Positions 11,300 through 29,337 of a stretch of 29,731 bases of DNA are shown piece after piece (position 1 is the stretch's first letter; each line of letters starts with the position of its first letter). A program made the translations under genes and the position numbers. This DNA comes from a virus (taxonomy: Duplodnaviria; Heunggongvirae; Uroviricota; Caudoviricetes): IMG/VR virus record IMGVR_UViG_2908572912_000004, one strand, 5' to 3'. The notes beneath the pieces were generated by a model. The model had not been told where the DNA came from, searched no databases, and worked only from the letters and a program-made list of their open reading frames with translations.

Positions 11300-11310
11300 A
11301 GGTGTAAGAC

Positions 11311-11550
11311 ATGGGTAGCATTAACCTGCGTATTGACGATGAACTTAAAGCGCGTTCTTACGCCGCGCTTGAAAAAATGGGTGTAACTCCTTCTGAAGCG
11401 CTTCGTCTCATGCTCGAGTATATCGCTGACAATGAACGCTTGCCGTTCAAACAGACACTCCTGAGTGATGAAGATGCTGAACTTGTGGAGATAGTGAAAG
11501 AACGGCTTCGTAATCCTAAGCCAGTACGTGTGACGCTGGATGAACTCTGA
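11311..11550 (+). CDS. relB: RelB antitoxin (79 aa)
   Basis: MGSINLRIDDELKARSYAALEKMGVTPSEALRLMLEYIADNERLPFKQ... recognised as RelB; stop overlaps the relE start (ATGA). Confidence 0.9.
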   Translation: MGSINLRIDDELKARSYAALEKMGVTPSEALRLMLEYIADNERLPFKQTLLSDEDAELVEIVKERLRNPKPVRVTLDEL

Positions 11551-11837: not shown

Positions 11838-11908
11838 ACCAAAGCATGACATCTCTGTTTCGCACCGAAGGTGACACTTCTGCTTTGCGTTGACAGGAGA
11901 AGCAGGCT

Positions 11909-12064
11909 ATGAAGCAGCAAAAGGCGATGTTAATCGCCCTGATCGTCATCTGTTTAACCGTCATAGTGACGGCACTGGTAACGAGGAAAGACCTCTGCGA
12001 GGTACGAATCCGAACCGGCCAGACGGAGGTCGCTGTCTTCACAGCTTACGAACCTGAGGAGTAA
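11909..12064 (+). CDS. hokD: HokD (RelF) Hok-family membrane toxin (51 aa)
   Basis: Not in the ORF track (below its length cut-off). ATG at 11909 encodes MKQQKAMLIALIVICLTVIVTALVTRKDLCEVRIRTGQTEVAVFTAYEPEE: single TM helix plus conserved Hok C-terminal domain; third gene of the relBE operon. Confidence 0.85.
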   Translation: MKQQKAMLIALIVICLTVIVTALVTRKDLCEVRIRTGQTEVAVFTAYEPEE

Positions 12065-12132
12065 GAGACCCGGCGGGGGAGAAATCCCTCGCCACCTCTG
12101 ATGTGGCAGGCATCCTCAACGCACCCGCACTT

Positions 12133-12159
12133 AACCCGCTTCGGCGGGTTTTTGTTTTT
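12133..12159 (+). terminator. Intrinsic terminator after the relB-relE-hokD operon
   Basis: AACCCGC-ttcg-GCGGGTT hairpin followed by TTTTGTTTTT. Confidence 0.75.
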
Positions 12160-12280
12160 ATTTTCAACGCGTTTGAAGTTCTGGACGGTGCCGGAATAGA
12201 ATCAAAAATACTTAAGTAGCGCGCAGGGATAAGAGGGATGGTCCCTTAAAGGGGAGAGCTAATTATCCGGAAGGATTCTG

Positions 12281-12532
12281 ATGATGAACATCGAAGAACT
12301 GCGTAAAATTTTTTGTGAAGATGGCCTCTATGCTGTGTGCGTTGAAAATGGAAATCTTGTTAGTCATTACCGCATTATGTGTTTGCGAAAGAATGGGGCT
12401 GCGTTAATTAATTTTGTGGATGCTCGGGTCACGGACGGATTTATCTTGCGCGAAGGTGAGTTTGTCACTTCATTACAGGCATTGAAAGAGATCGGAATAA
12501 AAGCTGGCTTTTCTGCTTTTTCAGGAGAATAA
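12281..12532 (+). CDS. rem: Rem-like small protein (83 aa)
   Basis: 83-aa ORF in the Qin rem position between hokD and ydfU; identity by length, position and recall. Confidence 0.7.
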   Translation: MMNIEELRKIFCEDGLYAVCVENGNLVSHYRIMCLRKNGAALINFVDARVTDGFILREGEFVTSLQALKEIGIKAGFSAFSGE

Positions 12533-12598
12533 ACTCATCTACAATCTTGCGCGGGGCTGAACTCCCGCTGAGTAACACCGTGCCACCGGAGAAAACCG

Positions 12599-12877
12599 AT
12601 GGCACGCAACGCAAAATATTACAATTCTGATAATTCGCCCGTTCTTGCCTGCACGCACGGGCGGTATTCTCACGCATTCAAGTCTGAATGGTTCCAGCAC
12701 CCTCCATGCACTGCAGAACAGGCCGAATGGCTGATTCATTCTTACCGCAGGCGCGGGTTCGAGGTTAAGAAAGCTCTCAGTCTCGACTATCGGCACTGGA
12801 TAATCTCTGTCAGGCTGCCTTATTCCGAACGCCCACCACGTGCGTCCCGCACTTTCCAGCAACGGATCTGGAGGTAA
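12599..12877 (+). CDS. Hypothetical nin-region protein (92 aa)
   Basis: ATG with SD GGAG 8 nt upstream; stop at 12875-12877 abuts the ydfU GTG start at 12879 (translational coupling). Function unknown. Confidence 0.5.
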   Translation: MARNAKYYNSDNSPVLACTHGRYSHAFKSEWFQHPPCTAEQAEWLIHSYRRRGFEVKKALSLDYRHWIISVRLPYSERPPRASRTFQQRIWR

Positions 12878-12878
12878 C

Positions 12879-13928
12879 GTGCGGGTATTACTTAGACCTG
12901 TTCTGGTGCCTGAGCTTGGGCTGGTGGTCCTTAAGCCGGGCCGTGAATCCATACAGATATTTCATAATCCTCGAGTGCTGGTGGAACCGGAACCAAAAAG
13001 CATGCGTAATCTGCCATCCGGAGTCGTTCCTGCCGTTCGCCAGCCGCTGGCGGAAGACAAAACATTGCTGCCGTTTTTTAGTAACGAACGGGTGATTCGT
13101 GCTGCTGGCGGCGTTGGCGCATTGTCCGACTGGCTATTACGTCATGTTACATCCTGCCAGTGGCCTAATGGCGATTACCATCACACTGAAACAGTCATTC
13201 ACCGTTATGGTACCGGCGCAATGGTGTTGTGCTGGCACTGCGACAACCAACTGCGTGACCAGACATCGGAATCACTGGAGCTGCTTGCTCAACAAAATCT
13301 GACAGCATGGGTGATTGACGTCATCCGTCACGCAATAAGCGGTACGCAGGAGCGGGAATTATCTTTGGCTGAATTATCCTGGTGGGCGGTCTGCAATCAG
13401 GTGGTGGATGCACTACCTGAGGCTGTATCGCGTCGTTCGCTGGGATTACCAGCGGAAAAAATCTGCTCGGTGTACCGCGAAAGCGACATCGTACCGGGAG
13501 AGCAGACCGCCACCAGCATATTGAAACAACGCACAAAAAATCTTGCACCGTTGCCTTACGCCCACCAGCAACAAAAATCACCACAGGAAAAGACGGTGGT
13601 AAGCATCACCGTTGATCCAGAGTCTCCGGAATCTTTCATGAAGCTGCCTAAACGTCGCCGCTGGGTTAAGGAGAAATACACACGTTGGGTTAAGACACAG
13701 CCGTGTGCTTGCTGCGGTATGCCAGCCGACGATCCGCATCATCTGATTGGTCACGGGCAGGGCGGAATGGGAACAAAAGCACATGATCTCTTTGTGTTGC
13801 CTTTGTGCAGAAAGCATCACAACGAGCTGCATACGGATACAGTGGCATTTGAAGATAAGTATGGCTCCCAACTGGAGCTGATATTTCGTTTTATCGATCG
13901 CGCGCTGGCAATTGGCGTACTGGCGTAA
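12879..13928 (+). CDS. ydfU: YdfU-like DUF968 protein with C-terminal Cys/His (HNH-like) motif
   Basis: GTG start at 12879 with SD GGAGG gives 349 aa (the track ORF extends upstream to 12840); C-terminal CACCG...DPHHLIGHGQGG...CRKHHNELH motif. Confidence 0.7.
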   Translation: MRVLLRPVLVPELGLVVLKPGRESIQIFHNPRVLVEPEPKSMRNLPSGVVPAVRQPLAEDKTLLPFFSNERVIRAAGGVGALSDWLLRHVTSCQWPNGDYHHTETVIHRYGTGAMVLCWHCDNQLRDQTSESLELLAQQNLTAWVIDVIRHAISGTQERELSLAELSWWAVCNQVVDALPEAVSRRSLGLPAEKICSVYRESDIVPGEQTATSILKQRTKNLAPLPYAHQQQKSPQEKTVVSITVDPESPESFMKLPKRRRWVKEKYTRWVKTQPCACCGMPADDPHHLIGHGQGGMGTKAHDLFVLPLCRKHHNELHTDTVAFEDKYGSQLELIFRFIDRALAIGVLA

Positions 13929-13941
13929 GTGGAGAACGAGC

Positions 13942-14694
13942 ATGAACCTTGAAGCCTTACCAAAATATTACTCCCCAAAATCTCCAAAATTGAGCGATGA
14001 CGCTCCAGCGACAGGCACCGGTTGTTTAACAATTACGGATGTAATGGCAGCGCAGGGGATGGTGCAGTCGAAAGCACCACTTGGGTTGGCCTTATTTCTG
14101 GCAAAAGTTGGTGTTCAGGACCCTCAGTTTGCGATTGAAGGCCTGCTAAATTACGCGATGGCACTGGATAACCCGACATTGAACAAATTGAGTGAAGAAA
14201 TCCGGTTACAGATTATTCCTTACCTCGTGAGTTTTGCCTTTGCTGATTACTCCAGGTCTGCGGCAAGTAAGGCTCGCTGTGAGCATTGTTCAGGTACGGG
14301 ATTTTATAATGTATTGCGCGAAGTGGTGAAACACTACAGACGCGGGGAATCTGTAATCAAGGAAGAATGGGTGAAGGAACTATGTCAGCATTGCCATGGT
14401 AAGGGCGAAGCCAGCACAGCGTGCAGAGGGTGTAAGGGTAAAGGGATTGTTCTGGATGAAAAAAGAACCCGGTTTCATGGCGTACCGGTATATAAGATTT
14501 GTGGGCGTTGTAATGGAAACCGGTTTAGTCGTTTACCGACCACGCTGGCACGACGTCATGTCCAGAAGCTGGTACCAGACCTGACCGATTATCAGTGGTA
14601 TAAGGGGTATGCGGACGTCATTGGTAAACTGGTAACAAAGTGCTGGCAGGAAGAAGCATACGCGGAAGCGCAATTGAGGAAGGTGACGAGATAA
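13942..14694 (+). CDS. quuQ: Late-gene antiterminator Q (250 aa)
   Basis: ATG at 13942 with SD GGAG 7 nt upstream; Cys-rich zinc-binding region (CEHCSGTG...CQHCHGKG...CRGCKGKG...CGRCNG); followed by a late promoter and terminator. Confidence 0.8.
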   Translation: MNLEALPKYYSPKSPKLSDDAPATGTGCLTITDVMAAQGMVQSKAPLGLALFLAKVGVQDPQFAIEGLLNYAMALDNPTLNKLSEEIRLQIIPYLVSFAFADYSRSAASKARCEHCSGTGFYNVLREVVKHYRRGESVIKEEWVKELCQHCHGKGEASTACRGCKGKGIVLDEKRTRFHGVPVYKICGRCNGNRFSRLPTTLARRHVQKLVPDLTDYQWYKGYADVIGKLVTKCWQEEAYAEAQLRKVTR

Positions 14695-14725
14695 ATGATT
14701 TTTGCTGAAGATGGCGACATGATGT

Positions 14726-14754
14726 TTGCATTCTTCAAAAAATATGGATAAAAT
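14726..14754 (+). promoter_or_regulatory. Late promoter pR'-like (sigma-70) downstream of Q
   Basis: TTGCAT (14726-14731), 17-bp spacer, TAAAAT (14749-14754); 32 nt after the Q stop codon; the expected qut region overlaps it. Confidence 0.65.
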
Positions 14755-14801
14755 TTTTTCAACGATGGGCTTTGTATACCCGACGTTAAGAAAAAGTAGA
14801 A

Positions 14802-14830
14802 AACCCGCTGATGAGCGGGTTTTGTGCTTT
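14802..14830 (+). terminator. tR'-like intrinsic terminator of the short late leader transcript
   Basis: AACCCGCT-gatg-AGCGGGTT hairpin followed by TTTGTGCTTT, about 45-70 nt downstream of the predicted pR' start. Confidence 0.75.
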
Positions 14831-15115
14831 AAATGGGGCAATGGTAATGTTGAATCTCATCCCGGGACTCATGTCTGTTAACTTATTATTTAGCTGGTGA
14901 CTTGGTTATTTGCCTGATGTTTAAAATGTTTTCTTCCAGTACAATGTCCCTAAACACAATGAGTCTGCTTATTATATTATTAGCAGAGCTATTACGGCCA
15001 AAGTACAGCATAAGCTTTTAAAGCCAATCAACCAGTCATCAAGACAGACGGGGTTATTCATAAAAACTCTCCATGTGTGATCCGATGGGGCCTGAAATTA
15101 AAGCTTTAATATAGC

Positions 15116-15328
15116 TCATGAAAGGTAAACATTGGCAGCTGAAGGGCCACGCAGACCATTTATCCGGCAAAATTCCACGCGTAATCCGGTGGTAATTTCT
15201 TCTGCATCGCGGAGATTGAGCGCTGAAACATGAAGCTGGACATCGATACGACCATCGGATGGGGTGATAAGACCCTTGCCGCTTTTGCCGTCAAAGGTTT
15301 TGACAATTCCTGTCATTTTACGGGACAA
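15116..15328 (-). CDS. cspF: Cold-shock protein paralog CspF (70 aa)
   Basis: [26 protein letters not shown]... CspA-family fold lacking the canonical RNP motifs, as in CspF/CspH; Qin position next to cspB. Confidence 0.85.
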
Positions 15329-15628
15329 AAAAATTCCTTAATACTGATAACTTGGCGCACTATACACACGTTCCTGAAGAAAGCTATAGTTTTTTGATGG
15401 GGTTGAAGATGGCTGGATGTCTAAAATAAACATTGCTTCATATGTTCAACTATGCGTTAATGATTGCGTCGGTTTGAAGAACAGACGATATACGAAGTAG
15501 TTTACTAAAGCAGTTCTCATTTCAGGTGTTATTCACTTATTCCTTCTTTGAGTCTCTCCAATTAAGTACGAAGTCGTTTCTGTTATGCAAACCATTTATG
15601 CCGAAAGGCTCAAGTTAAGGAATGTAGA

Positions 15629-15844
15629 ATGTCAAATAAAATGACTGGTTTAGTAAAATGGTTTAACGCTGATAAAGGTTTCGGCTTTATTTCTCCTGTT
15701 GATGGTAGTAAAGATGTGTTTGTGCATTTTTCTGCGATTCAGAATGATAATTATCGAACCTTATTTGAAGGTCAAAAGGTTAGCTTCTCTATAGAGAGTG
15801 GTGCTAAAGGTCCTGCAGCAGCAAATGTCATCATTACTGATTAA
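15629..15844 (+). CDS. cspB: Cold-shock protein CspB (71 aa)
   Basis: [51 protein letters not shown]... with RNP1/RNP2 motifs (KGFGFI, VFVHF); about 300-nt AT-rich 5' leader typical of cold-shock genes. Confidence 0.9.
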
Positions 15845-16125
15845 AATTCATCGCTCGTCTGTATACGATAACGAAGAAGGCTGATGCCTGAGTAGAGATA
15901 CGGACAGAGTAGTGAATATTGGATCTCTTTAATAAAAAGTAAGGAGGTCCAATACATGAAACAATGGCTAGCATATTTGGCAAAATCTTAATCAGGAAAA
16001 GTATGCTAACCATTGTGGTGAAGTGCAGGTTTGCTGCATGAATAGTTTTACAGCAGAAGCTAACTGCTGGCATGGCAAAACAAAGTGCGTAAGTGGATGA
16101 CTCCCACAAAAAGCACCACAATCTC

Positions 16126-16148
16126 AAACCCGCTCAGGCGGGTTTTTT
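16126..16148 (+). terminator. Intrinsic terminator about 280 nt downstream of cspB
   Basis: AAACCCGC-tcag-GCGGGTTT hairpin followed by a T-run (to 16148). Confidence 0.7.
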
Positions 16149-16207
16149 ATTATCTGCTTTAAATATATTATTAAAATATAAAAAATACTTGTTACTAATA
16201 AAATCAA

Positions 16208-16378
16208 TCAGGCTACAGCTTTAAGATTTGTCTGGAATACTTTGTTGCAATGAGGGCAGATCAAAAGGGCACCTTTTTGTACTCTTGAAAAACTGTGTTC
16301 TGACTCTTGGGTGCAGTTTGGGCAGGAACATTTAACGAGATAATTACGGCGTGATTTTGAGTTTTTACGTTCTGACAT
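16208..16378 (-). CDS. Small zinc-ribbon protein (56 aa from internal Met)
   Basis: MSERKNSKSRRNYLVKCSCPNCTQESEHSFSRVQKGALLICPHCNKVFQTNLKAVA with two CxxC pairs; SD AGGA 7 nt upstream of the internal ATG. Confidence 0.5.
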   Translation of the reverse strand: MSERKNSKSRRNYLVKCSCPNCTQESEHSFSRVQKGALLICPHCNKVFQTNLKAVA

Positions 16379-16597
16379 AGGCTTTTCCTGTATAAATGGC
16401 CGTATACAGTACACTAAATATGAAAACATTTCTCGTATTATTATTTTATATATGACTTTCTTTCAAAATAATTACCCACATTTTTAATGTGTATGTTTTT
16501 TTAGCGCCGTTGAGAACAACGTGTGCTGTCAAAACTACCCCGTAGACTCCGATCTTTTCAAACATATTGCACCATCCGTGTACATCGGGGTGAGGAT

Positions 16598-16813
16598 ATG
16601 AAATCAATGGATAAGTTAACAACAGGTGTTGCCTATGGCACATCGGCGGGTAATGCTGGTTTCTGGGCATTGCAGTTACTCGATAAAGTAACTCCGTCAC
16701 AGTGGGCTGCAATCGGTGTGCTGGGTAGCCTGGTTTTTGGCCTGCTGACGTATCTGACAAATCTTTATTTCAAGATTAAAGAAGACAGGCGTAAGGCTGC
16801 GAGAGGAGAGTAA
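16598..16813 (+). CDS. essQ: Phage-21-type pinholin (class II holin S21-like), dual-start motif
   Basis: ATG at 16598 (SD GAGGA) gives the 71-aa [71 protein letters not shown]: two TM segments, Met-Lys-Ser-Met dual start, charged C-terminus. Confidence 0.85.
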
Positions 16814-16817
16814 TCCA

Positions 16818-17125
16818 ATGACTCAAGACTATGAACTGGTTGTGAAAGGAGTCCGTAATTTTGAGAATAAAGTTACGGTAACTGTAGCCTTACAGGACAA
16901 AGAACGCTTTGACGGTGAAATTTTTGACCTGGATGTCGCCATGGACCGTGTTGAAGGAGCTGCGCTGGAGTTTTATGAGGCAGCAGCCAGAAGGAGCGTC
17001 CGGCAAGTCTTCCTGGAAGTAGCAGAAAAATTGTCAGAAAAAGTTGAGTCTTATCTGCAGCATCAGTACTCCTTTAAGATTGAAAATCCTGCCAATAAGC
17101 ACGAGCGTCCTCATCATAAATATCT

Positions 17126-17129
<4 letters not shown>
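16818..17129 (+). CDS. ydfR: YdfR-like protein (103 aa) between holin and endolysin
   Basis: 103-aa ORF at the Qin ydfR position; overlaps the endolysin start (ATGA). Confidence 0.7.
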
Positions 17130-18153
<1,024 letters not shown>

Positions 18154-18515
18154 GGTAATATTAAATCGGAACATTTACATCGCGGAATGTAAAATTTGAA
18201 TAAAAAGGACTCTTCCATGAGCCAAAATTCCTGAAATCTTAAGGGTAAGATAAAAGGTCTTAATCAGAATGACACGTTTTATTAATAAATAAAGCTATTC
18301 TTTCATTGCTGTGTTTTTCTTTACAAAAGTAATCCTTGCTATGGGTGGTTAATCATGCGTTAATGGTGTTCTGGTTTGTTACAAATTTATCTGAAGCAGT
18401 CATTGTTATAATTTTATTATTTGTACCTCTTGAGATTTCCTTGTTGGTTTTTCTCTCTGATATTTTTTTTCGGACCATTCTGCCCAAGGGCTAATTTCTT
18501 CAAAAGGTAATAATT

Positions 18516-18728
18516 ATGTCTAACAAAATGACTGGTTTAGTGAAATGGTTTAACCCTGAAAAAGGTTTTGGTTTCATCACGCCGAAAGATGGCAGCAAAG
18601 ATGTGTTTGTCCATTTCTCAGCAATTCAGAGCAACGATTTCAAAACATTAACTGAGAATCAGGAAGTTGAATTTGGTATTGAGAACGGACCTAAAGGTCC
18701 TGCCGCTGTTCATGTAGTGGCGCTTTGA
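18516..18728 (+). CDS. cspI: Cold-shock protein CspI (70 aa)
   Basis: [70 protein letters not shown] recognised as CspI; RNP1/RNP2 motifs present. Confidence 0.9.
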
Positions 18729-18932
18729 GGTAGACAATATTACAAACCATATTCACTTTAGATGCCCGTGTTGTCATGGTTCCCAGTATAGAACATCATC
18801 TTTTGATGTTTCTGACATGAATCCTTTCGGGGCAAAATGTATCTTTTGTAAATCAATGATGATTACATTTGATAATATTTCACAATACTTAAATGCCAGC
18901 CGTCTGTCGTTGGATTTAAAAAAGTGAAAATG

Positions 18933-18956
18933 AAGGCTCCTTCGGGAGCTTTTTTG
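18933..18956 (+). terminator. Intrinsic terminator about 200 nt downstream of cspI
   Basis: GGCTCC-ttcg-GGAGC hairpin followed by TTTTTT (18950-18955). Confidence 0.7.
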
Positions 18957-18999
18957 CTTGGTGTCTATTCGATGGATACTCACATACTACGGTAACATC

Positions 19000-19230
19000 A
19001 TGAAAAAAATCATAGTTTTTTTTAACTCTGAACCAGCAGTGGTAGTGCCAGCGATGACTGGAGTTAACACCATCATGCGTGAATATCCAAATGGCGAAAA
19101 AACACACCTTACTGTAATGGCCGCAGGGTTTCCATCTCTGACCGGAGATCATAAAGTCATTTATGTAGCCGCGGATCGACATGTTACTTCAGAAGAAATT
19201 CTGGAAGCAGCAATAAGGCTCTTGAGTTGA
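19000..19230 (+). CDS. Hypothetical small protein (76 aa from first ATG)
   Basis: Track ORF 18958..19230 begins at TTG; first ATG at 19000 (MKKIIVFFNSEPAVVVPAMTG...). Weak SD; coding status uncertain. Confidence 0.45.
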   Translation: MKKIIVFFNSEPAVVVPAMTGVNTIMREYPNGEKTHLTVMAAGFPSLTGDHKVIYVAADRHVTSEEILEAAIRLLS

Positions 19231-19401
19231 TTTGATGCTATTGCATTGATAATTCAGGAAAATTCTCTTTGTCTGTTTGTGTAAAATTTAGACTATCGTA
19301 TGTTGATTATTGCGATGTTTCATCTTATCTTTTACACGTTTGCACCATATAATCGACTTACTGTGTAACTGGAAAGTCATAACAGACTAAAAGAGGAAAT
19401 G

Positions 19402-19575
19402 ATGAATATTGAAGACTTAAAAACAAAAGCAGAAGCAGATATTTCTGAATATATAACAAAAAAAATTATTGAACTTAAGAAAAAGACCGGGAAAGAAGTT
19501 ACCAGTATTCAGTTTACCGCACGGGAAAAAATGACGGGTCTTGAAAGCTATGATGTCAAGATTAATTTAATCTGA
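19402..19575 (+). CDS. gnsB: GnsB-like small protein (57 aa)
   Basis: Not in the ORF track. SD AAGAGGA then MNIEDLKTKAEADISEYITKKIIELKKKTGKEVTSIQFTAREKMTGLESYDVKINLI, close to GnsA/GnsB as I recall them; TATAAT -10 hexamer about 50 nt upstream. Confidence 0.75.
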   Translation: MNIEDLKTKAEADISEYITKKIIELKKKTGKEVTSIQFTAREKMTGLESYDVKINLI

Positions 19576-19726
19576 TGTATTCAATAATAAAATTTATCCA
19601 TAAACCTCGTTTTTACGGGGTTTTGTTATATTTGAATGGTTCCGAATATCTAAATCACAATTGTTGATGGTTTTTATTAAACCAATGCAGTCCGGCTCAG
19701 GAGTGAGAGAAGCCGGACGTTATGGT

Positions 19727-20158
19727 TTAGCGTGGTAAGATCTGTGTAGTTTTCTGGATGCTTTCAGTAATTTTCTGGATGCTTTCAGTAAATAGTAATG
19801 AGTTATCAAAGGCATAGTAATATCTTTGGTGTTCCTGGATATTTGTAACCCATCGGAAAACTCCTGCTTTAGCAAGATTTTCCCTGTATTGTTGAAATGT
19901 GATTTCTTTTGATTTCAACTTATTATAGGAGGTCTCTATAAGATGTTTGTTTCTGGAGAATTTAACATTTACAACCTTTTTGAGTCCTTTTACTAACACT
20001 ATGTTGTCGTTTTCTAACACAATGTGAATATTATCTGTGGCTAAATAGTAAATATAAAGTGAGACATTGTGACGTTTTAGCTCAGAATAAAATAATTCAC
20101 AGTTTAAATCTTTACGCACTTGATCGAATATTTCTTTAAAAATGGCAGCCTGAGCCAT
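19727..20158 (-). CDS. ydfO: YdfO-like DUF1398-family prophage protein
   Basis: Start at the [11 protein letters not shown] Met (SD GAAGG 7 nt upstream); the C-terminus carries a tandem 7-aa duplication (ESIQKIT x2) from a perfect 21-bp DNA duplication. Confidence 0.65.
19750..19791. repeat. Perfect 21-bp tandem duplication (x2) inside the ydfO-like coding sequence
   Basis: TTTTCTGGATGCTTTCAGTAA occurs twice back to back (19750-19770 and 19771-19791), in frame. Confidence 0.9.
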
Positions 20159-20458
20159 TGGTAAACCTTCCATGTGATACGATGGCGCGTAGTTAGCATT
20201 ATCGTGTTTATTGTTTCAATCTGGTCTGACCTCTTTGTGTTTTGTTGATGATTTATGTCAAATATTAAGCCTGTTTTTAATGAATAGTGTTGATTGCGTA
20301 ACAAAATTGAGCCTTGCTGGCATCCAGGAGGGATATGCAACCGACAGATGTATGTAAGGTCGATGTACTCAAACTTTCATACTTTTCCTCTTTTATGCAG
20401 TAAGATTTGAAGTAATATTTTAACCGCTAGATGACGAGCAAACGCATGGAGCGACAAA

Positions 20459-20665
20459 ATGAATAAAGAACAATCTGCTGATGAACTCTCGTTGGATCTG
20501 ATTCGTGTAAAAAATATGCTTAATAGCACCATTTCTATGAGTTACCCGGATGTTGTAATTGCATGTATAGAACATCAGGTGTCTCTGGAAGCATTCAGGG
20601 CAATTGAGGCAGCGTTGGTGAAGCACGATAAGAATTCGAAGGATTATTCCCTGGTGGTTGACTGA
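20459..20665 (+). CDS. Hypothetical small protein (68 aa)
   Basis: ATG with SD GGAG 7 nt upstream; [68 protein letters not shown]; a fully antisense ORF of equal length (20420..20626) is probably its shadow. Confidence 0.5.
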
Positions 20666-20990
20666 GCACCATAACTGCTAATCATTCAAACTATTTCACC
20701 TGTGACAGAGTCAATATCGCATTCTGTCACTGTCAGGCTAATACAGAGCTGCAATTCAACTACTGCAATGTCCTCGTAATTAGGTGAATTTACAATATCG
20801 TCCTGTTCGGATGCCGGTTGCATTGCTGAAGATGAGGCATTTATGGTTCGCATATTTTCCCCTCATGCTCGTCAGTCCTGTGCGTAGGAAGAAACAGGAC
20901 ACTCACACTAATTTGTGTGGGCATGCTGTGATGTCCTTCTGAATTATTCCTATGCCATTATGTAAAGCGCTGTATCAGATGCTCATCACG

Positions 20991-21014
20991 GCTGTCAGGC
21001 TGTCAGGCTGTCGG
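20991..21014. repeat. 8-bp tandem repeat x3 (GGCTGTCA GGCTGTCA GGCTGTCG) at the edge of a GC-rich island upstream of the terminase genes
   Basis: Direct reading; followed by GC-rich partially symmetric sequence (GGTGGGGGCCCCTGCCACGGGG) and then an AT-rich block; candidate packaging (cos-like) region. Confidence 0.8.
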
Positions 21015-21207
21015 GTCCTCCCGGTGGGGGCCCCTGCCACGGGGCGGGAGCGTCGCGGAAAAAGGCTAGTTTTTGCATTTCCATGGCGGCGGCAGCATGT
21101 TTGGTAATTTATTGATAATTAAAAGTTATTTATCTTTTTACCTGTACAATATTTTTTTCTCCCTGTCATTAGACCAGTTTACAATTAATTGAAATATATA
21201 AATAAAC

Positions 21208-21765
21208 ATGATTTTCACCTGCCAGATGGAGTTGCTTATGTCAAATGTGAGCGGGATCGGTGATGCTTATTACTGGAGTGTTTTTAAAATCGCTGAGGCC
21301 TTTGGGCTTCACCGGGACACAGTAAAAAAACGGCTTCTCGCGGCCAACACTCCTGTGGCTGCGACTGTCAGGGGGAACCCCGTTTACGCCCTGCAGCATG
21401 TCGGGCCAGCCCTGTTTAGTGTGAAGCATGAGGCAGCAGACTCTGTTCATGATCCATCCCGTATGGAGCCGAAAGAGAGAAAGGACTGGTACCAGTCTGA
21501 AAATGAAAGGATCAAGCTGGAAAAGGAGCAGCGAAAACTCATCCCCGTTGATGAAGTAGTCATCGTCTATTCGTCCATGAGAAAGGCTGTCGTCCAGGTT
21601 CTGGAGACAATTCCGGATGTTCTTGAACGCGATTGCGCCCTGACTCCTCAGGCCGTCGGCGTTGTACAGCAGGCAATTGATGACCTGCGATACACTCTTC
21701 AGGAAAAATCCTACGAGGCTTGTGCTGCTGAATTAATTCCTGATGAGGAAGGAGAGAGTCTCTAG
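21208..21765 (+). CDS. Putative terminase small subunit (DNA-packaging, HTH-containing)
   Basis: 185-aa ORF (alternative start at MSNVSGIGDAYYW, 21238) immediately upstream of the terminase-large-like ORF; N-terminal HTH-like segment, acidic C-terminus. Family assignment by position and general resemblance. Confidence 0.6.
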   Translation: MIFTCQMELLMSNVSGIGDAYYWSVFKIAEAFGLHRDTVKKRLLAANTPVAATVRGNPVYALQHVGPALFSVKHEAADSVHDPSRMEPKERKDWYQSENERIKLEKEQRKLIPVDEVVIVYSSMRKAVVQVLETIPDVLERDCALTPQAVGVVQQAIDDLRYTLQEKSYEACAAELIPDEEGESL

Positions 21766-21773
21766 GAGGAATA

Positions 21774-24700
21774 ATGGGTTTTTCATCAGCCCGAAATTTG
21801 GGAAGGGACATATCGGCAGGATTTTCCCCACCACGTCGCATGCCGATTTCGGAGGCTGTTAAAAAATTCATGCGTGTTCCCAAGGGGGCTGGTAACTCGG
21901 TGCCATGGGATCCTGAACTGACACCCTACATCATTGAGCCCATGAACTGCCTGGCATCGCGTGAATACGATGCGGTGATTTTTGTTGGTCCTGCGCGAAC
22001 AGGGAAGACCATTGGTCTGATCGATGGATGGATTGTCTATACCATCGTTTGCGATCCTTCGGACATGCTCGTTGTGCAGATGACCGAAGATAAGGCCCGC
22101 GAGCATTCTAAAAAGCGCCTCGACAGAACGTTTAGAAGCAGTGCGGCGGTAAAGAAAAGAATGAGTCCACGTCGTAACGACAATAATGTCCATGATAAGA
22201 CGTTCAGGGATGGCTCGTTCCTTAAAATTGGTTGGCCCTCGGTCAACATTATGTCGTCGTCGGATTACCGGTTTGTCGCCTTAACCGATTACGACCGTTT
22301 TCCGGAGAATATCGACAGCGAGGGTGATGGTTTCTCCCTGGCCTCAAAACGTACCACCACATTTATGTCCGCCGGGATGACTCTGGTGGAGAGCTCGCCG
22401 GGACGTGACATCTGCGACAGCAAATGGCGACGTAAGTCGCCTCATGAAGCGCCACCGACGACTGGTATTCTTTCCCTTTACAATCGTGGTGACCGCCGCC
22501 GCTGGTACTGGTCATGTCCGCACTGCGGTGAATATTTTCAGCCAGCCATGGATGCCATGACCGGCTACCGTAATGAACCGGATCCCTTTAAAGCCAGTGA
22601 GGCGGCGTATCTACTTTGCCCGCACTGCAGCGGCATTATCACTGCGGAGAAAAAGCGTGAGCTCAATAGTGCAGGAGTCTGGTTGGGTGAAGGTCAGGTC
22701 ATTGATCGTAACGGCAACGTTTCCGGTGAACCGCGCCGCTCCCGTATCGCCAGTTTCTGGATGGAAGGCTTCCCGCCATCGCATGCCGGGACCATCACCG
22801 TGTATGAAGACTCACAACCGGGTACGCTGAATGATTTTCTCGGTGCCATGACGGAGGATGATGCCCGTCCGGAGGCACTGCGCCGCTTTGAACTGATGGT
22901 GGAAGAGGTGGCGCGTAACGCGTCCGCAGTGGCACAGAACACGGCAGCCGCGAAGAAGTCAGCCAGCGATGCCGGCACATCAGCCCGTGAGGCGGCAACC
23001 CATGCGACTGATGCTGCAGGCTCAGCACGTGCAGCCAGCACATCAGCCGGGCAGGCCGCTTCGTCGGCTCAGTCAGCGTCTTCCAGCGCAGGAACGGCAT
23101 CAACAAAGGCCACTGAAGCATCAAAAAGTGCTGCCGCTGCAGAGTCCTCAAAAAGCGCGGCGGCTACCAGTGCCGGTGCGGCGAAAACGTCAGAAACGAA
23201 TGCTGCAGCGTCACAAAAATCTGCAGCCACTTCTGCATCCACCGCGACCACGAAAGCGTCAGAAGCTGCCACCTCAGCCCGGGATGCGGCGGCCTCAAAA
23301 GAGGCAGCGAAATCATCAGAAACGAGCGCAGCCTCGAGCGCCAGTAGTGCAGCCTCTTCGGCAACGGCGGCAGGAAATTCCGCGAAGGCCGCAAAAACGT
23401 CTGAGACGAATGCGGATAACAGCGCACAGGCGGCAGCGGCCTCACAAACTGCATCGGCAAACTCCGCGACAGCAGCCAAAAAATCAGAAACCAACGCGAA
23501 AAATAGCGAGGCAGCAGCAAAGAGCAGCGAAACTAATGCTAAATCCAGTGAAACAAACGCGGCGAAATCTGCAGCGGACGCACTTAATTATCGCAACCAG
23601 GCACAATCCGTTGTTGGTAACAATATTGGTCTTGGTGAAGTTGCCATGACCTGCACTGATATCTCTGTTGAGCCATCAGGTTATATTGGATTTATCAGGA
23701 TTTACATCTCAGCGAAAGGTTATCCATCAGTAGCGTCTAGTGCCGGGGATAATCTTATTTCTGGTTATATAGTTAGATCAGAAGTGTCAACAAAAAGATA
23801 TTCCGGTCTATTTGTTGGTTCAGATACAAAATCATTGTATTCGTACATTTACAGCCAAAGTTCTGGCCCGCAATGGATACGTCATACCCGCAGAGATGAA
23901 TTAAGCCGCTTTGGTCAAAATGAATCAACAACTCGTATGTATGGTCCAACTGGTGATCGTTTCTTTGAAATCCATACTAACGGGAGTTGGGGGGTTTATG
24001 ATTCTTCTTCTGGACAATGGTCTCCGTTAGGTTTAGCCCAGGGCGGTACTGGTGGAAGAACTATCGAGCAAGCACGTGCGAACTTGCGGGTAATGTATGA
24101 GCAAAAAGCTGGCCTTGCTAATACTGACCTAAACACCCTTACCGGTGAATATTCTGGTTTCTATCAACAACCAACGAGCGCTTACGCAACAGAAGAATTA
24201 AATTACCCAATCGGTCTGGCGGGCGCTTTAATAGTGCTCCAAACGAGAGCCAACACTGCTTCTTCCTGCGTTCAGGTGTACTACCCTTATAATAATCCGG
24301 GAATTACTTATAGACGAATATATGAAGGAGGTAGCGGTACCTGGTCTGAATGGAAGAGAGATGTATCAACAGAAAGGGTTGAAGAGGGAAAAGAAACAAC
24401 TTACGTATATTCTACGTATTCTTCAGGCGCACCACGCTTACAGGTTTCCAAATCTGGTTTGTGGGGTTGTCATAATGGCACTGGCTGGTTGCCATTAGCT
24501 GTTGGGCAAGGAGGTACAGGTGCGACAACAGTAGAAGATGCGCGAAACAACTTAAGTCTTGGCGAAAGTAGCGCAGTTAAATTTAAAAACCTTACTTTAA
24601 CCGAAGCGCTCGACACGACATTAGGACTGCTTACAAAAACAGGACGAGACTGGAACACGCAGCATACTGATAACATTAATAAATTTATACCAATTGCAGG

Positions 24701-25856
24701 CAGTACAAACGGCCCGGCAGGTTCTATGGTTCTTGGTGGCATTCATGTTCAATTTAGTAAAAATTATGCTGTGCAGTTCGGAGGCCGCAATTCCGGTTTT
24801 TGGGGAAGAACAATTGAAAATGGAACGACGCAGGAATGGAAGAAATTACTAACAGTAGACGATCTCAATTCATCTACCGATCTTGCTGTCAGGTCATTAA
24901 CCACATCTAACCCGGTAAAATCTGGCGGAGGGCGAATTGATGTCCTTGGAAGCACGTCAGACTATAGCAAAATGGATTGCTTTGTACGTGGGTTTGATAG
25001 CACCGGTAATTCTCTCGCGTGGGCGTTGGGTTCATCAGTCGGCGTAAGTAAGATGCTGTCGCTAAAAAATTTCTTTAGCGGAGCTGAGATACTGTTAAAT
25101 GGTAATGACGGCGCGGTTCAACTCAAAACAGGTGCTGTTAACGGGGCTAAAGCGCAGGCGCTCACTATCAACAAGGATGAGGTTAACTCAACTGTTGATT
25201 TAACTCTTACAAAACAAACAGGGACTGGAAATCGTTTTGTTTTACAGAACTTAGGTAATACAGAACTATCATTTGCCGCAAAAGTATGGGGATCAAGTGA
25301 TCGACAAAACGTTTTTGAGGTTGGAACGTCTGCTGCGTATCTGTTTTATGCGCAAAAAACGTCAGCAGGCCAGTTGTTTGATGTAAATGGCGCTATTAAT
25401 TGCACAACGCTGAATCAGTCATCAGACCGCGACCTTAAAGACGATATTCTCGTTATCAGCGACGCGACGAAAGCAATCCGTAAAATGAACGGATACACCT
25501 ACACGCTCAGGGAAAACGGGATGCCTTATGCTGGCGTTATTGCACAGGAAGTAATGGAGGCGATACCAGAAGCTGTGGGATCGTTTACTCATTACGGTGA
25601 AGAGTTGCAGGGACCAACGGTTGACGGCAATGAATTACGTGAAGAAACACGTTATCTGAATGTTGACTACGCCGCCGTGACGGGGTTACTTGTTCAGGTC
25701 GCCCGTGAAACAGATGGTCGCGTTACCGCGCTGGAAGAGGAAAACATAACGCTACGTAAAAATCTGGCAACAGCAGGCACCCGGATCAGCACTCTGGAAA
25801 ATCAGGTAAGCGAACTGGTTGCACTTGTCGGGCAGTTAACAGGAAGCGAACATTGA
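21774..25856 (+). CDS. In-frame fusion ORF (1360 aa): terminase large subunit N-terminal ATPase region (aa 1 to ~331) joined to a side tail fibre protein with C-terminal intramolecular-chaperone (peptidase S74-like) domain
   Basis: N-terminal part: Walker A GPARTGKT, CPHCGEYF and LLCPHCSG motifs paralleling lambda gpA-type terminases. From about nt 22767: FPPSHAGTITVYEDSQPGTLNDFL..., which I recall as the N-proximal conserved segment of lambdoid Stf proteins, then long Ala/Ser/Thr-rich KSxETNA-type repeats. C-terminal ~145 aa (from nt 25419): SSDRDLKDDI...GVIAQEVMEAIPEAV, typical of self-cleaving tail-fibre chaperone domains. Confidence 0.85.
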   Translation: MGFSSARNLGRDISAGFSPPRRMPISEAVKKFMRVPKGAGNSVPWDPELTPYIIEPMNCLASREYDAVIFVGPARTGKTIGLIDGWIVYTIVCDPSDMLVVQMTEDKAREHSKKRLDRTFRSSAAVKKRMSPRRNDNNVHDKTFRDGSFLKIGWPSVNIMSSSDYRFVALTDYDRFPENIDSEGDGFSLASKRTTTFMSAGMTLVESSPGRDICDSKWRRKSPHEAPPTTGILSLYNRGDRRRWYWSCPHCGEYFQPAMDAMTGYRNEPDPFKASEAAYLLCPHCSGIITAEKKRELNSAGVWLGEGQVIDRNGNVSGEPRRSRIASFWMEGFPPSHAGTITVYEDSQPGTLNDFLGAMTEDDARPEALRRFELMVEEVARNASAVAQNTAAAKKSASDAGTSAREAATHATDAAGSARAASTSAGQAASSAQSASSSAGTASTKATEASKSAAAAESSKSAAATSAGAAKTSETNAAASQKSAATSASTATTKASEAATSARDAAASKEAAKSSETSAASSASSAASSATAAGNSAKAAKTSETNADNSAQAAAASQTASANSATAAKKSETNAKNSEAAAKSSETNAKSSETNAAKSAADALNYRNQAQSVVGNNIGLGEVAMTCTDISVEPSGYIGFIRIYISAKGYPSVASSAGDNLISGYIVRSEVSTKRYSGLFVGSDTKSLYSYIYSQSSGPQWIRHTRRDELSRFGQNESTTRMYGPTGDRFFEIHTNGSWGVYDSSSGQWSPLGLAQGGTGGRTIEQARANLRVMYEQKAGLANTDLNTLTGEYSGFYQQPTSAYATEELNYPIGLAGALIVLQTRANTASSCVQVYYPYNNPGITYRRIYEGGSGTWSEWKRDVSTERVEEGKETTYVYSTYSSGAPRLQVSKSGLWGCHNGTGWLPLAVGQGGTGATTVEDARNNLSLGESSAVKFKNLTLTEALDTTLGLLTKTGRDWNTQHTDNINKFIPIAGSTNGPAGSMVLGGIHVQFSKNYAVQFGGRNSGFWGRTIENGTTQEWKKLLTVDDLNSSTDLAVRSLTTSNPVKSGGGRIDVLGSTSDYSKMDCFVRGFDSTGNSLAWALGSSVGVSKMLSLKNFFSGAEILLNGNDGAVQLKTGAVNGAKAQALTINKDEVNSTVDLTLTKQTGTGNRFVLQNLGNTELSFAAKVWGSSDRQNVFEVGTSAAYLFYAQKTSAGQLFDVNGAINCTTLNQSSDRDLKDDILVISDATKAIRKMNGYTYTLRENGMPYAGVIAQEVMEAIPEAVGSFTHYGEELQGPTVDGNELREETRYLNVDYAAVTGLLVQVARETDGRVTALEEENITLRKNLATAGTRISTLENQVSELVALVGQLTGSEH

Positions 25857-26030
25857 TATCCTTCAAGCCCTGAAGGAGGCTGTTCCTGGTACGTTCAGAC
25901 TGTTGTTGAGCTGGAAATCGCAACGGAGGAAGAAACTTCGTTGCTGGAAGTCTGGAAAAAGTATCGGGTGTTGCTGAACCGTGTTAATACATCAGTAGTA
26001 CCGGATATTGAATGGCCAGCACTGCCGTAG
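25857..26030 (+). pseudogene. Tail fibre assembly (Tfa) gene 3' remnant, in frame directly after the stf stop codon
   Basis: 57 codons with no start codon: ...[40 protein letters not shown], matching the conserved C-terminus of Tfa chaperones as I recall it. Confidence 0.6.
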
Positions 26031-26127
26031 GGTAAAACATATAAATTCTATAATTAGATGTATCTTTCCATTTACGGCAAGGAAGGGGGCTTGGAAGACG
26101 TAAAGCATCTCACACCGAGATTATTTT

Positions 26128-26718
26128 TTATATGTCAGGTGTCTGAAGTTTTGCTTTGGCTCTTAAAATGGTTTGCCGCGAGGTTTTGAATTCCCGGGCA
26201 ATGGCACTTATACTTACACCTGACTTAATTCGTTCGAATACCACCTGTTTCTGTTCTTCATTTAACACAGGTGGTCGACCAAAACGTTTCCCTGCGCCGC
26301 GGGCTCTTACTATCCCGGAATGAATGCGTTCAAGTAAAAGGTCTCGTTCAAATTCAGCGACTGCTGAAATTACTTGCATCATCATTTTTCCTGTTGGACT
26401 GGTCAGGTCAATGCCACCCAATGCTAAGCAATGCACTCTGATACCTGTTTCGGTCAGTTGTTCCACTGTTTTCCTGATATCCATTGCATTACAACCAAGG
26501 CGATCCAGTTTTGTCACAATCAATTGATCACCACATTTCAGGCGAGTAAGCAACCGGTTAAAACCAGGACGCTCACTGGTTGCTGCTGAGCCGCTAATGT
26601 GTTCTTCGATTATTTGCTGAGGTTTGATTTTAAAACCTGCACTTTCGATTTCCCGGCGTTGATTTTCGGTGGTCTGATCCAGCGTTGATATCCGACAGTA
26701 AGCAAAAATTCGAGACAT
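26128..26718 (-). CDS. pinQ: Small serine recombinase (invertase/resolvase family, Pin-like), 196 aa
   Basis: N-terminal catalytic motif YCRISTLDQ (catalytic Ser), resolvase-type core, C-terminal HTH ([18 protein letters not shown]). Confidence 0.9.
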
Positions 26719-28053: not shown

Positions 28054-29337
28054 ATGGATTTCCAGTTATATTCGCTCGGCGCAGCGTTAGTGTTTCATGA
28101 AATATTTTTTCCTGAATCATCAACGGCAATGGCGTTAATTCTGGCAATGGGAACCTACGGTGCAGGTTATGTGGCGCGTATTGTCGGAGCATTTATTTTC
28201 GGCAAAATGGGCGACAGAATAGGGCGTAAAAAAGTGCTCTTTATTACCATCACCATGATGGGGATCTGTACCACCTTAATTGGTGTGTTACCGACCTATG
28301 CACAGATTGGTGTTTTTGCACCCATCTTGCTGGTGACGTTGCGTATTATTCAGGGGTTGGGTGCAGGTGCGGAAATTTCCGGTGCCGGTACGATGCTGGC
28401 GGAATATGCGCCAAAAGGTAAGCGCGGAATTATCTCCTCATTTGTGGCTATGGGAACTAACTGCGGAACCTTGAGCGCAACGGCAATCTGGGCCTTTATG
28501 TTCTTCATTCTCAGTAAAGAGGAACTGCTGGCGTGGGGATGGCGTATACCGTTCCTGGCGAGCGTTGTCGTGATGGTCTTTGCTATCTGGTTGCGTATGA
28601 ATCTGAAAGAAAGCCCGGTCTTTGAGAAGGTTAACGACAGTAACCAACCGACAGCAAAACCTGCACCTGCTGGTAGCATGTTCCAGAGCAAATCCTTCTG
28701 GCTGGCAACAGGGCTGCGTTTTGGTCAGGCGGGTAACTCCGGGTTAATTCAGACTTTCCTTGCAGGCTATTTAGTGCAGACGTTATTGTTTAACAAAGCA
28801 ATTCCAACAGATGCATTGATGATCAGTTCGATTCTCGGCTTTATGACCATTCCGTTCCTTGGTTGGTTATCCGATAAAATTGGTCGCCGGATCCCGTATA
28901 TTATTATGAATACCTCCGCGATTGTGCTGGCATGGCCAATGCTTTCTATCATTGTAGATAAAAGCTATGCCCCGAGCACCATTATGGTTGCACTGATTGT
29001 GATTCATAACTGTGCGGTGCTGGGATTATTTGCTCTGGAAAACATTACCATGGCAGAAATGTTCGGCTGTAAAAACCGCTTTACCCGGATGGCTATTTCT
29101 AAAGAAATTGGTGGTCTTATCGCTTCCGGTTTTGGTCCTATCCTGGCGGGTATTTTCTGCACCATGACGGAATCCTGGTATCCGATCGCCATTATGATCA
29201 TGGCATATTCAGTGATTGGTTTAATCTCTGCGCTGAAAATGCCAGAGGTGAAAGACCGTGATTTAAGTGCGCTGGAAGACGCTGCGGAAGATCAACCGCG
29301 TGTTGTAAGAGCTGCGCAACCTTCCAGAAGTCTGTAA
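28054..29337 (+). pseudogene. ydfJ: MFS (metabolite:H+ symporter-type) transporter gene lacking its 5' end, split by the prophage insertion
   Basis: 427-aa ORF with multiple TM helices and the MFS loop motif GKMGDRIGRKK; expected first TM and N-terminus are absent, so the phage-host junction lies just upstream (about 28000-28055). Confidence 0.7.

Follow-up and report, generated by a model that had tools for sequence, protein, structure and literature searches.

An in-frame terminase–side tail fibre fusion in a defective Qin-type prophage, probably the scar of one recent deletion

How does a defective prophage come to carry an unbroken reading frame that begins as a large terminase subunit and ends as a side tail fibre, and is such a frame kept for its function? 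We addressed this question in a window of 29,731 nt (the whole stretch of DNA that was analysed; IMG/VR record IMGVR_UViG_2908572912_000004), which is a defective Qin-type prophage of E. coli. We conclude that the frame is very probably what a single deletion, recent and neutral, left behind in a Qin-type lambdoid prophage at the ydfJ site. The fusion is ordinary prophage decay, is known only from this genome and bears no sign of selection.

The chimeric reading frame and its neighbours

The ORF (21774-25856, plus strand) is single and unbroken, with 1360 codons and a stop, and its 1360-aa product has a predicted mass of 144.9 kDa. Its ATG follows a native AGGAGG Shine-Dalgarno sequence at a distance of 5 nt. 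The initial annotation had read the first ~331 codons as a gpA-type terminase ATPase that continues in the same frame as a side tail fibre, and domain searches bore out both halves. PHROGs assigned aa 1-331 to the terminase large subunit (E 6e-156) and aa 332-1360 to tail fibres. The terL-derived part (codons 1-332, 21774-22768, plus strand) aligns with terL of the intact locus L003 up to L003 position 2257 and holds the full GpA ATPase domain (PF05876 at aa 40-303, profile positions 2-247 of 247, E 9e-80). The Walker A motif expected in the N-terminal ATPase domain of a GpA-type TerL is present (21987-22010, plus strand; GPARTGKT, aa 72-79), as are CPHCG (aa 248-252), CPHCS (aa 282-286) and, further on, FWMEG|FPPSH (aa 328-337). 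The doubt that the N terminus might not be terminase-like can therefore be set aside, as this is a bona fide TerL ATPase domain. In intact TerL the ATPase domain (aa 40-303) is accompanied by a PF20454 nuclease domain at aa 325-643; Pfam gave no match to this endonuclease domain in the fusion, and the C-terminal, portal-binding end of TerL is missing.

The product switches to Stf sequence at aa 334. By Pfam, PHROGs and alignment with intact stf, the stf-derived part (22769-25856, plus strand) runs from about Stf residue 66 to the end. It consists of a collar-domain remnant, an Ala/Ser/Thr-rich coiled-coil shaft (about 22959-23648, plus strand), the distal fibre and an S74 intramolecular chaperone domain (25422-25577, plus strand; Peptidase_S74, PF13884, aa 1217-1268, E 1e-11). 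Ala makes up 35% of residues 396-625, Ser 22% and Thr 10%, and the shaft repeats are families D1-D3. Thus the repeat-rich shaft and the C-terminal folding/receptor module of an Stf are both found, as had been predicted. The complete N-terminal collar domain is not in the fusion: phage_tail_N (PF08400) matches aa 330-400 over profile positions 64-134 of 134 only (E 2e-32), whereas the parental Stf matches positions 1-134. Caution is called for before the product is annotated as either a terminase or a tail fibre.

The ORF lies downstream of Q, as the initial annotation had noted. The antiterminator gene, of the quuQ/ydfT type and at the head of the late operon (13912-14694, plus strand; Antiterm, PF03589, E 4e-54), has an orthologue annotated as ydfT 'antitermination protein' in the collinear locus L001. 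The lysis cassette (essD holin, ydfR, rrrQ lysozyme and rzpQ; 16598-18153, plus strand) is also upstream of the fusion in the same orientation, in a region 99.93% identical to L001. An intact small terminase gene of the DUF1441 type (21208-21765, plus strand; DUF1441 E 2e-44, phrog_141 E 2e-65), which in relatives is annotated with a start corresponding to window position 21238, ends 8 nt ahead of the chimeric ORF. Beyond the fusion are a 126-nt 3' remnant of the tail fibre assembly gene tfa (25905-26030, plus strand), which both collinear loci, L001 and L003, have annotated as an N-terminally truncated pseudogene, and the serine invertase gene pinQ (26128-26718, minus strand; Resolvase and HTH_7 domains), so annotated in relatives. 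A truncated MFS transporter gene, ydfJ' (28054-29337, plus strand), annotated in collinear loci as ydfJ without its N-terminus, is the right-end chromosomal flank of the Qin integration site. The integration in ydfJ, the ydfK-pinQ right end, the cspI-gnsB-rzpQ-rrrQ late region and the collinearity with annotated Qin loci, including that of K-12, identify the prophage as Qin-type. No portal, capsid, tail or J gene lies between the small terminase gene and the fusion, as had been observed, or elsewhere in the window; the tail genes V, M and J, which in L003 are within the deleted block, are absent beside the stf part. A search for invertase crossover sites near pinQ with the motif AAACCNNGGTTT returned one off-target match, which is at chance level and is weak evidence of absence.

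The junction and the missing block

Intact prophages at the same chromosomal site confirm that a single deletion, from inside terL to inside stf, separates the window from its relatives. Window positions 20502-22768 align with positions 1-2257 of L003, an intact Qin-type locus at ydfJ, and positions 22758/22762-29726 with its positions 20001/20004-26990; integration site and gene order agree. Between these collinear flanks one contiguous block is missing, which measures 17,753 bp against the intact Qin-type prophage of strain Bongo (also at ydfJ). This size is given in proxy coordinates because the true parent was a mosaic, with a left arm like that of 08-00022 and a right arm like those of 67-1 and Bongo, and was not found as one genome. 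The block comprises the nuclease half of terL, 17 complete head and tail genes (the head-tail joining gene, portal, protease/capsid, tail tube, chaperones, tape measure, the tip genes M/L/K/I/J, and lom) and the first ~65 codons of stf.

A base-by-base comparison with the terL and stf genes of L003 placed the junction at 22762-22768 (plus strand), in agreement with the switch near nt 22767 read from the frame itself. These positions hold the single kept copy of a 7-nt microhomology, TGGAAGG, which occurs at both parental breakpoints and encodes Glu-Gly in each. In terL it covers codons Glu332-Gly333 (...FWMEG|PAAAY) and in stf codons Glu64-Gly65 (...LLVEG|FPPSH). Because the two repeats share a codon phase, the fusion is in frame; and as each half-gene was intact, one long ORF results automatically. 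The parental structure, the breakpoints with their microhomology and the domains lost are established by these comparisons. We propose that illegitimate recombination, of the RecA-independent type, between the terL and stf copies of TGGAAGG would have removed the 17,753 bp (Bongo coordinates). Among all 7-mers shared by terL and stf there are 662 position pairs, and 298 of these (45%) are in frame. BLAST extension through chimeric queries hinted at extended similarity between the breakpoints; the real junction ranked only 292nd of the 662 pairs, and this idea was rejected. A Chi-like reading of GTTGGTGG / CTGGATGG was dropped as weak.

It could be argued that the junction was produced by assembly or by a chimeric read and that the prophage is really intact, as the junction is unique in all public data searched. 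We consider this very unlikely. A 7-nt overlap is not enough for assemblers to join contigs, each flank runs collinear with this locus in relatives, strand and order are unchanged across the join, and the microhomology is of the kind seen at other, independently sequenced scars. An assembly artefact had been raised at the outset as a way in which the deletion reading might fail; the join instead bears the signature of a microhomology-mediated deletion.

In other strains, helper-embedded satellites of a known kind insert at a site no more than 2 nt from the window breakpoint; we found nothing to show that one took part in this deletion. In 83 of 5,426 complete genomes an element of ~10.4 kb, which carries int, Bro-N, an icd-like gene, a D5 primase, SSB, its own capsid/protease and terS, splits GpA-type terL at codon 331, with CTGGATG(T/G)AGGGT as its att core. 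The window has CTGGATG at 22757-22763. The left breakpoint (microhomology start 22762) overlaps CTGGATG by 2 nt, an overlap that would arise by coincidence in ~0.5% of cases if breakpoints were uniform along terS-terL and that was noticed post hoc. The integrase of such a satellite, akin to the helper-embedded PICIs (HE-PICIs), might have made the deletion, either by aberrant excision from the terL att site with a pseudo-site in stf as partner or by excision after a second copy had entered stf, each leaving a hybrid attB. Besides the att core next to the breakpoint, the right arms resemble each other, as terL and stf each carry GAAGG, and off-target integration has been reported for HE-PICI integrases (Mageeney et al., 2023, PMC10111431). 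However, no IS or satellite DNA is present at the junction, and no satellite DNA in the window. The would-be overlap in stf, GTTGGTG, mismatches CTGGATG at 3 of 7 positions, and the satellite-bearing terL alleles compared (L007-L010) belong to a lineage ~68% identical in protein to the terL of the window. In an unbiased sample the endpoints of terL truncations are scattered, with no deletion hotspot at the att site. We searched for recombination intermediates with two chimeric queries, one of the satellite right end and stf and the other of the left part of stf and the satellite left end. Neither was spanned in the 5,426 complete genomes: there were no satellite-stf junctions in either orientation, and the satellite left end was always in terL. 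On this ground we keep a satellite origin only as a rival of low probability. Were it true, satellites would be agents that cripple helper prophages. The microhomology deletion remains our preferred account, and no observation speaks directly against it.

Age, selection and fate of the fusion

The nearest relative, 08-00022, is 100.0% identical over window positions 1-21179 and 99.8% identical over terS-terL', and it keeps terL (699 aa), portal, capsid, tail, J, lom and stf. That so close a relative still has the whole virion module marks the deletion as very recent. The N-terminal 331 aa of the fusion differ from the 699-aa TerL of 08-00022 by one synonymous and one nonsynonymous change, and, set against four intact alleles, terL' has R305G and 1-2 synonymous changes as its sole differences. 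R305G is private, and the Arg is conserved across TerL lineages that are 68% identical to each other. Against the 1094-aa Stf allele of 67-1, stf' has 16 synonymous and 3 nonsynonymous codon changes over the shared region. There are no stops or indels in terL' or stf' relative to the intact alleles. These counts, taken against the nearest intact alleles, measure how far intact phages have diverged rather than any change since the deletion.

The fusion allele is private to this genome. The junction was absent from the 5,426 complete E. coli genomes, and among 50,697 phage records none spanned it, so the architecture is not native to complete phages; cdtI and Tritos carry the two halves as separate genes. 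Nor was it found in three contig collections (GTDB species representatives, IMG/VR and JGI metagenomes), and the fusion protein was absent from an exact-protein index. A protein query with the junction segment gave mostly short fragments, which cannot exclude long fusions, and the full-length sequence was used instead. Its best matches among 5.8 billion protein clusters were 1101-aa Stf proteins at 76% query coverage, and none of the top matches paired PF05876 with PF08400. The conservation across lineages that marks a domesticated gene is thus lacking, the fusion being found in no other genome or cluster, and there is no post-deletion divergence to measure.

Whether the fusion is expressed or selected, the question raised with the initial annotation, is answered mostly in the negative. 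An intact frame needs no selection here, as the allele is private, a relative keeps the whole virion module, the chance of an in-frame join is between 1/3 and 45%, and other terL-stf joins in Qin do not keep one frame. One could still suppose that the long frame persists because the chimera, or its ATPase-only TerL part, benefits the host, perhaps by acting as a dominant-negative terminase against packaging by superinfecting lambdoid phages. The intact frame and native ribosome-binding site agree with this, as does the retention of terS and an ATPase-only terL remnant in the widespread scar of the P0002 type, recorded from 121 blocks of the collection. Against it, the allele is private and essentially undiverged from its intact parents, which leaves no time for selection to act or show, and its sole private change, R305G, hits the conserved Arg. 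How much of terL survives varies widely among other scars, from none to about 1519 nt; other terL-stf joins lack a single frame; and expression would need Q, which turns on the lysis genes too. We regard a host benefit as very unlikely. Equally slim, in our judgement, is the chance that the chimera is not inert, with a trimeric fibre bearing three TerL ATPase domains, or an ATPase-only TerL beside terS, poisoning the packaging of superinfecting or co-resident lambdoid phages, and, separately, that a satellite integrase caused the deletion. Retention of terS and terL' in several Qin scars could in that case reflect a dominant-negative terminase role.

The prophage would no longer be able to cut cos DNA or to build heads or tails. 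With the terL ribosome-binding site kept and the late operon dependent on Q, the fusion would be made only when late transcription is on. The fibre shaft and S74 domain would probably make its product a trimer, with ATPase domains where the tail-binding collar should be. With no virion to join, it would be expected to be functionless and to decay with time. Were the fusion expressed and active against other phages it would represent a new route to a defence gene, and nothing here points to that. The locus is of value as a clean, resolved case of the origin of a defective prophage, in which both parents, the 7-nt crossover and the deleted gene set are defined. A long chimeric ORF can arise by chance, with ~45% of the possible terL/stf microhomology joins preserving frame, which calls for caution before an intact long frame is taken as evidence of selection.

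Comparison with other Qin loci, satellites and side tail fibres

Intact Qin-type prophages at ydfJ (Bongo, 08-00022 and MEI2BO-21) and the free phages cdtI and Tritos, which have the same terL, are 97.7-100% identical in nucleotides on both sides of the junction and show the parental order terS-terL-portal...J-lom-stf-(tfa)-pinQ. They keep the 17.75-kb block and encode TerL (699 aa) and Stf (1101 aa) in separate genes, whereas the fusion genome lacks the block.

Seven other Qin scars, including nohA-stfQ of K-12, all have different breakpoints, with junction overlaps of 1-5 nt where measured, and in two further terL-stf joins one continuous frame is lost. The terL remnant ranges from none, in the 67-1 scar with its break in terS, to about 1519 nt. 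The first scars found, at L003 2188-2364, suggested a breakpoint hotspot at the ATPase/nuclease boundary, but those queries caught nearby scars only; an unbiased sample with full-length terL gave scattered truncation endpoints (nt 128, 497, 1519 and 2032), and the hotspot was rejected. Together with the fusion, these seven independent scars show that the Qin head-tail block has been lost repeatedly through unrelated deletions.

Qin of K-12 MG1655 (nohA-stfQ-tfaQ-pinQ, b1545-b1548) shares with the window the ydfJ integration site and the flanks on one side (ynfT, ydfK and pinQ) and the other (ydfO, gnsB, ynfN, cspI, rzpQ, rrrQ and essQ). In both, the entire head-tail block is gone and a terminase gene abuts an N-terminally truncated stf. 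However, the small terminase of K-12 is of the Nu1 type and nothing of terL remains there, whereas the packaging genes of the window are of the DUF1441/GpA type. StfQ of K-12 is a 320-aa C-terminal fragment with tfaQ, while the window keeps about 94% of Stf, with its S74 end; and the two K-12 ORFs overlap by 50 nt unfused, in contrast to the in-frame join. The P0002-type scar (e.g. CP091016.1) is at the same site, in the same terL lineage (99% identical), and ends in the same arrangement, with terS, an ATPase-only TerL' and an Stf fragment followed by pinQ. Its terL break is 21 nt earlier (codon 325) and its stf break far deeper (codon ~722) than in the window, and its join, with a 3-nt overlap, is out of frame, giving ORFs of 328 aa and 266-301 aa. 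It is widespread, whereas the window fusion is private.

The helper-embedded PICI-like element is seen at terL codon 331 in relatives of the window prophage and is absent from the window. The HE-PICI terminase sites that Mageeney et al. (2023, PMC10111431) describe belong to genes of the Terminase_1 type, and 'GpA' is nowhere mentioned in the supplementary text consulted.

A structural counterpart of the fibre half is gpStf of Ur-lambda (PDB 9e7m, 9mgh), whose N-terminal 94 residues are near-identical to those of the parental Stf (E 1.5e-53). Both share a general layout of collar, linker and coiled-coil shaft (PMC12617516), and in Ur-lambda residues 1-91/94 form the collar domain that binds gpV/gpM (PMC12617516). 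About residues 1-65 are missing from the fusion, and with them most of the collar's six-strand beta-sheet, which clamps gpV/gpM. The distal ends also differ, that of the fusion being of the S74 self-cleaving chaperone type and that of lambda of the Tfa-assisted type.

The terL-stf junction and its parent prophage

By the gene content of both flanks, the window is a lambdoid prophage of the Qin type, located at ydfJ in an E. coli chromosome. To the right lie pinQ, ydfK, a truncated ydfJ and ydfI. To the left is the late region of the cryptic prophage Qin (Q/ydfT, cspF/B, essD, ydfR, rrrQ, rzpQ, cspI, ynfN, gnsB and ydfO), and farther left are an intact integrase, an exonuclease, an HTH repressor, YdaT and one ISEsa1 copy.

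At ydfJ strain Bongo has a prophage that is still intact (L003), with terS, terL (699 aa), 17 head/tail/lom genes, stf (1101 aa), a tfa remnant and pinQ. Two blocks of the window align to it, 20502-22768 with L003 1-2257 (97.7%) and 22758/22762-29726 with L003 20001/20004-26990 (99.0%), and 17,753 bp are missing relative to Bongo coordinates. Base by base, parental terL reads ...TTCTGGA-TGGAAGG-GCCAGC at the breakpoint, parental stf reads ...CTGTTGG-TGGAAGG-ATTCCC, and the window reads ...TTCTGGA-TGGAAGG-CTTCCC, with a single copy of the 7-nt direct repeat TGGAAGG left at 22762-22768. Because terL and stf both read the repeat in one phase, as Glu-Gly, the join is in frame (FWMEG/FPPSH). The scar can be screened for with the 25-mer GTTTCTGGATGGAAGGCTTCCCGCC. 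The initial annotation had proposed a single deletion from terL to stf; its observation was confirmed, and the two-block alignment and the one retained repeat copy support its interpretation as a deletion scar.

The single long terL-stf ORF that had been claimed was also borne out (21774-25856, plus strand, 1360 codons in the ORF listing). Pfam places at aa 40-303 a complete GpA terminase ATPase domain (E 9e-80; profile positions 2-247 of 247). At aa 330-400 it finds no more than the C-terminal half of a 'prophage tail fibre N-terminal' domain (profile positions 64-134 of 134); at aa 1217-1268, as predicted, is a C-terminal intramolecular chaperone domain (S74). PHROGs concurs, assigning aa 1-331 to a terminase large subunit and the remainder to a tail fibre. 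The GPARTGKT Walker A motif, the CPHCG motif and the Ala/Ser/Thr-rich stretch all lie where they had been placed, and CPHCS and the FWMEG/FPPSH switch are present as well. As the nuclease domain of intact TerL starts at aa 325, the ATPase domain survives entire in the fusion and the nuclease is lost. The small terminase gene (DUF1441 type) ends 8 nt upstream of the fusion ORF, which keeps the AGGAGG ribosome-binding site of native terL.

The ISEsa1 transposase gene (IS1202-like, 8669-10009) is in the early/replication region and adjoins, or perhaps interrupts, an O-like gene; this copy is common to a near-identical left arm in 624 complete genomes, some still with all virion genes. Two relatives carry ISCro1 (IS66 family) about 40 nt apart, upstream of or inside the terS start, at window equivalents 21169-21179 (strain 08-00022) and 21212-21219 (the group of ETEC strain 67-1). 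The window has no IS at about 21169-21219, a possible local hotspot for insertion. Between the fibre gene, which ends in its S74 self-chaperone domain, and pinQ there is only a tfa 3' remnant of 126 nt (25905-26030). In this region (25857-26718), pinQ has the look of an orphan invertase: searches near it turned up neither inverted repeats that bound a segment nor, in a weak test, a crossover-like motif.

A satellite in terL of other strains

P0086, a 331-aa TerL fragment ending in SFWM and a stop, led us to a satellite in GpA-type terL. This element of ~10.4 kb is inserted at terL codon 331 in E. coli IMT16316 (NZ_CP023815.1; L010 2214-12611), and the same satellite is present at L007-L009 from 4996 onward and at L019 from 2528 onward; beyond its far end terL continues with the nuclease half. 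The element's genes are int, Bro-N, icd-like, DUF4222, D5 primase and SSB, plus a ClpP-protease/capsid fusion and a DUF1441 terS, both its own. Its att core is CTGGATG(T/G)AGGGT, with CATTCTGGATG joined to TAGGGTACAT at attL and CTTCCTGGATG joined to GAGGGTCCGG at attR. The arrangement of attL and int occurs in 83 of 5,426 complete E. coli genomes.

Could the satellite integrase have made the deletion in the window? We consider this very improbable. The equivalent of the satellite att site, CTGGATG at 22757-22763, does overlap the deletion junction by 2 nt, but chimeric queries found no recombination intermediates in 5,426 genomes, and at the candidate site for the integrase in stf (…CTGTTGGTGGAAGG…) the would-be overlap mismatches the satellite core at 3 of 7 positions.

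The satellite itself fits the 'helper-embedded PICI' configuration described in PMC10111431. That paper's terminase sites are in genes of Terminase_1 type, and the accessible supplement text makes no mention of 'GpA'. GpA-type terL may be an unlisted target site of helper-embedded PICIs.

Product, reading frame and age of the fusion

The deletion from terL to stf should leave the prophage unable to package DNA or build particles because the nuclease domain and the portal, capsid and tail genes are gone. In Ur-lambda the gpV/gpM junction is clamped by a collar domain, a six-strand beta-sheet made of Stf residues 1-91 (PMC12617516); as the fusion starts at about Stf residue 66, this collar would be destroyed. 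Upstream of the fusion ORF are Q, the lysis genes and several insert genes, and terminator-like hairpins are found at 16126 and 19602. The ORF would be transcribed solely under Q antitermination, i.e. during induction. Its 145-kDa product, if made, would probably trimerise through the shaft and S74 domain, and it has no apparent role; self-cleavage by S74 would be expected to give smaller species as well.

Between L003 terL (1263-3362) and stf (19814-23119) there are 662 shared 7-mer position pairs, and 298 of these (45%) would give in-frame joins. In flanking similarity, the actual junction ranks 292 of 662. The same codon phase is thus found for 45% of shared 7-mers instead of 33%, an excess presumably due to codon-usage periodicity. 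Microhomology deletions between same-strand coding regions are therefore biased towards in-frame fusions. Three joins lie inside both terL and stf, and the window's alone stays open as one frame; that of P0002, a widespread terL-stf scar, is out of frame and the fibre remnant of strain APEC-O117H42 is annotated as frameshifted. To the question of whether the fusion is selected, these in-frame pairs, the privacy of the allele and the other terL-stf joins without a single frame answer that selection is not needed. The long open frame needs no explanation.

The closest genome, 08-00022 (100.0% identity over 1-21179, 99.8% over terS and the terL-derived part), retains a complete virion block. Compared with four intact alleles, the terL-derived part has 1-2 synonymous changes and one private substitution, R305G (CGT to GGT, codon 305, 22686-22688). 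The arginine is conserved in every intact allele compared and even in TerL lineages with only 68% identity; R305G may mark the onset of relaxed constraint, or be an error in sequencing. The nearest allele to the stf-derived part is that of ETEC 67-1 (16 synonymous, 3 nonsynonymous changes). Because the two parts have different nearest alleles, the deletion parent was a mosaic of known alleles.

The junction query was spanned in only 6-7 of 5,426 complete genomes, and all those examined were different scars. The junction was absent from 50,697 phage records and from GTDB species representatives, IMG/VR and JGI metagenomes, and the fusion protein from an exact-match protein index. The best hits of a full-length search of 5.8 billion protein clusters were ordinary Stf proteins that cover 76% of the query, and none of the top hits combined PF05876 with PF08400. 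The deletion event is private and recent, and most simply neutral.

Other scars at the Qin locus

Besides the window's, we found seven head-tail deletions at ydfJ. Qin-type prophages there have had at least eight independent head-tail block deletions, all with different breakpoints (other strains: L001, L004, L005, L006, L020 and L014). On the intact L003 map, the scars run from terS 980 to lom 19198 in the 67-1 group, from terL 2188 to 19784 in the EH01-18-02 group, from terL 2364 to 19759 in TB06052, and from terL 2362 to lom 19505 in AST19. The P0002 type, mapped on 08-00022 and MEI2BO-21, joins terL codon 325 to stf codon ~722 and is found in 121 blocks of the collection. Two scars are placed above base level: APEC-O117H42, from terL nt ~497-507 to an internal stf point (match end and annotation), and K-12, from nohA to stfQ (annotation and domain content). 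Junction overlaps are 1-5 nt in the five of these seven that were mapped to the base, and terL truncation endpoints are scattered in an unbiased sample. All six ydfJ scars with DUF1441/GpA packaging genes retain terS at least in part. In the full set of eight, pinQ and at least part of stf remain, and retention of this stf-pinQ end may be ascertainment.

The widespread P0002-type scar is located at L015-L018 6001-7834 (e.g. CP091016.1). Its TerL remnant is 328 aa long, ending ...RSRI/RGV before the stop, and is overlapped by a C-terminal Stf fragment of 266-301 aa, after which come tfaQ and pinQ. This scar differs from the window's in that it breaks 21 nt upstream of the window's junction, with a 3-nt overlap, and out of frame. 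Qin is a textbook case of prophage decay, and the window's scar is a new allele of this well-known kind.
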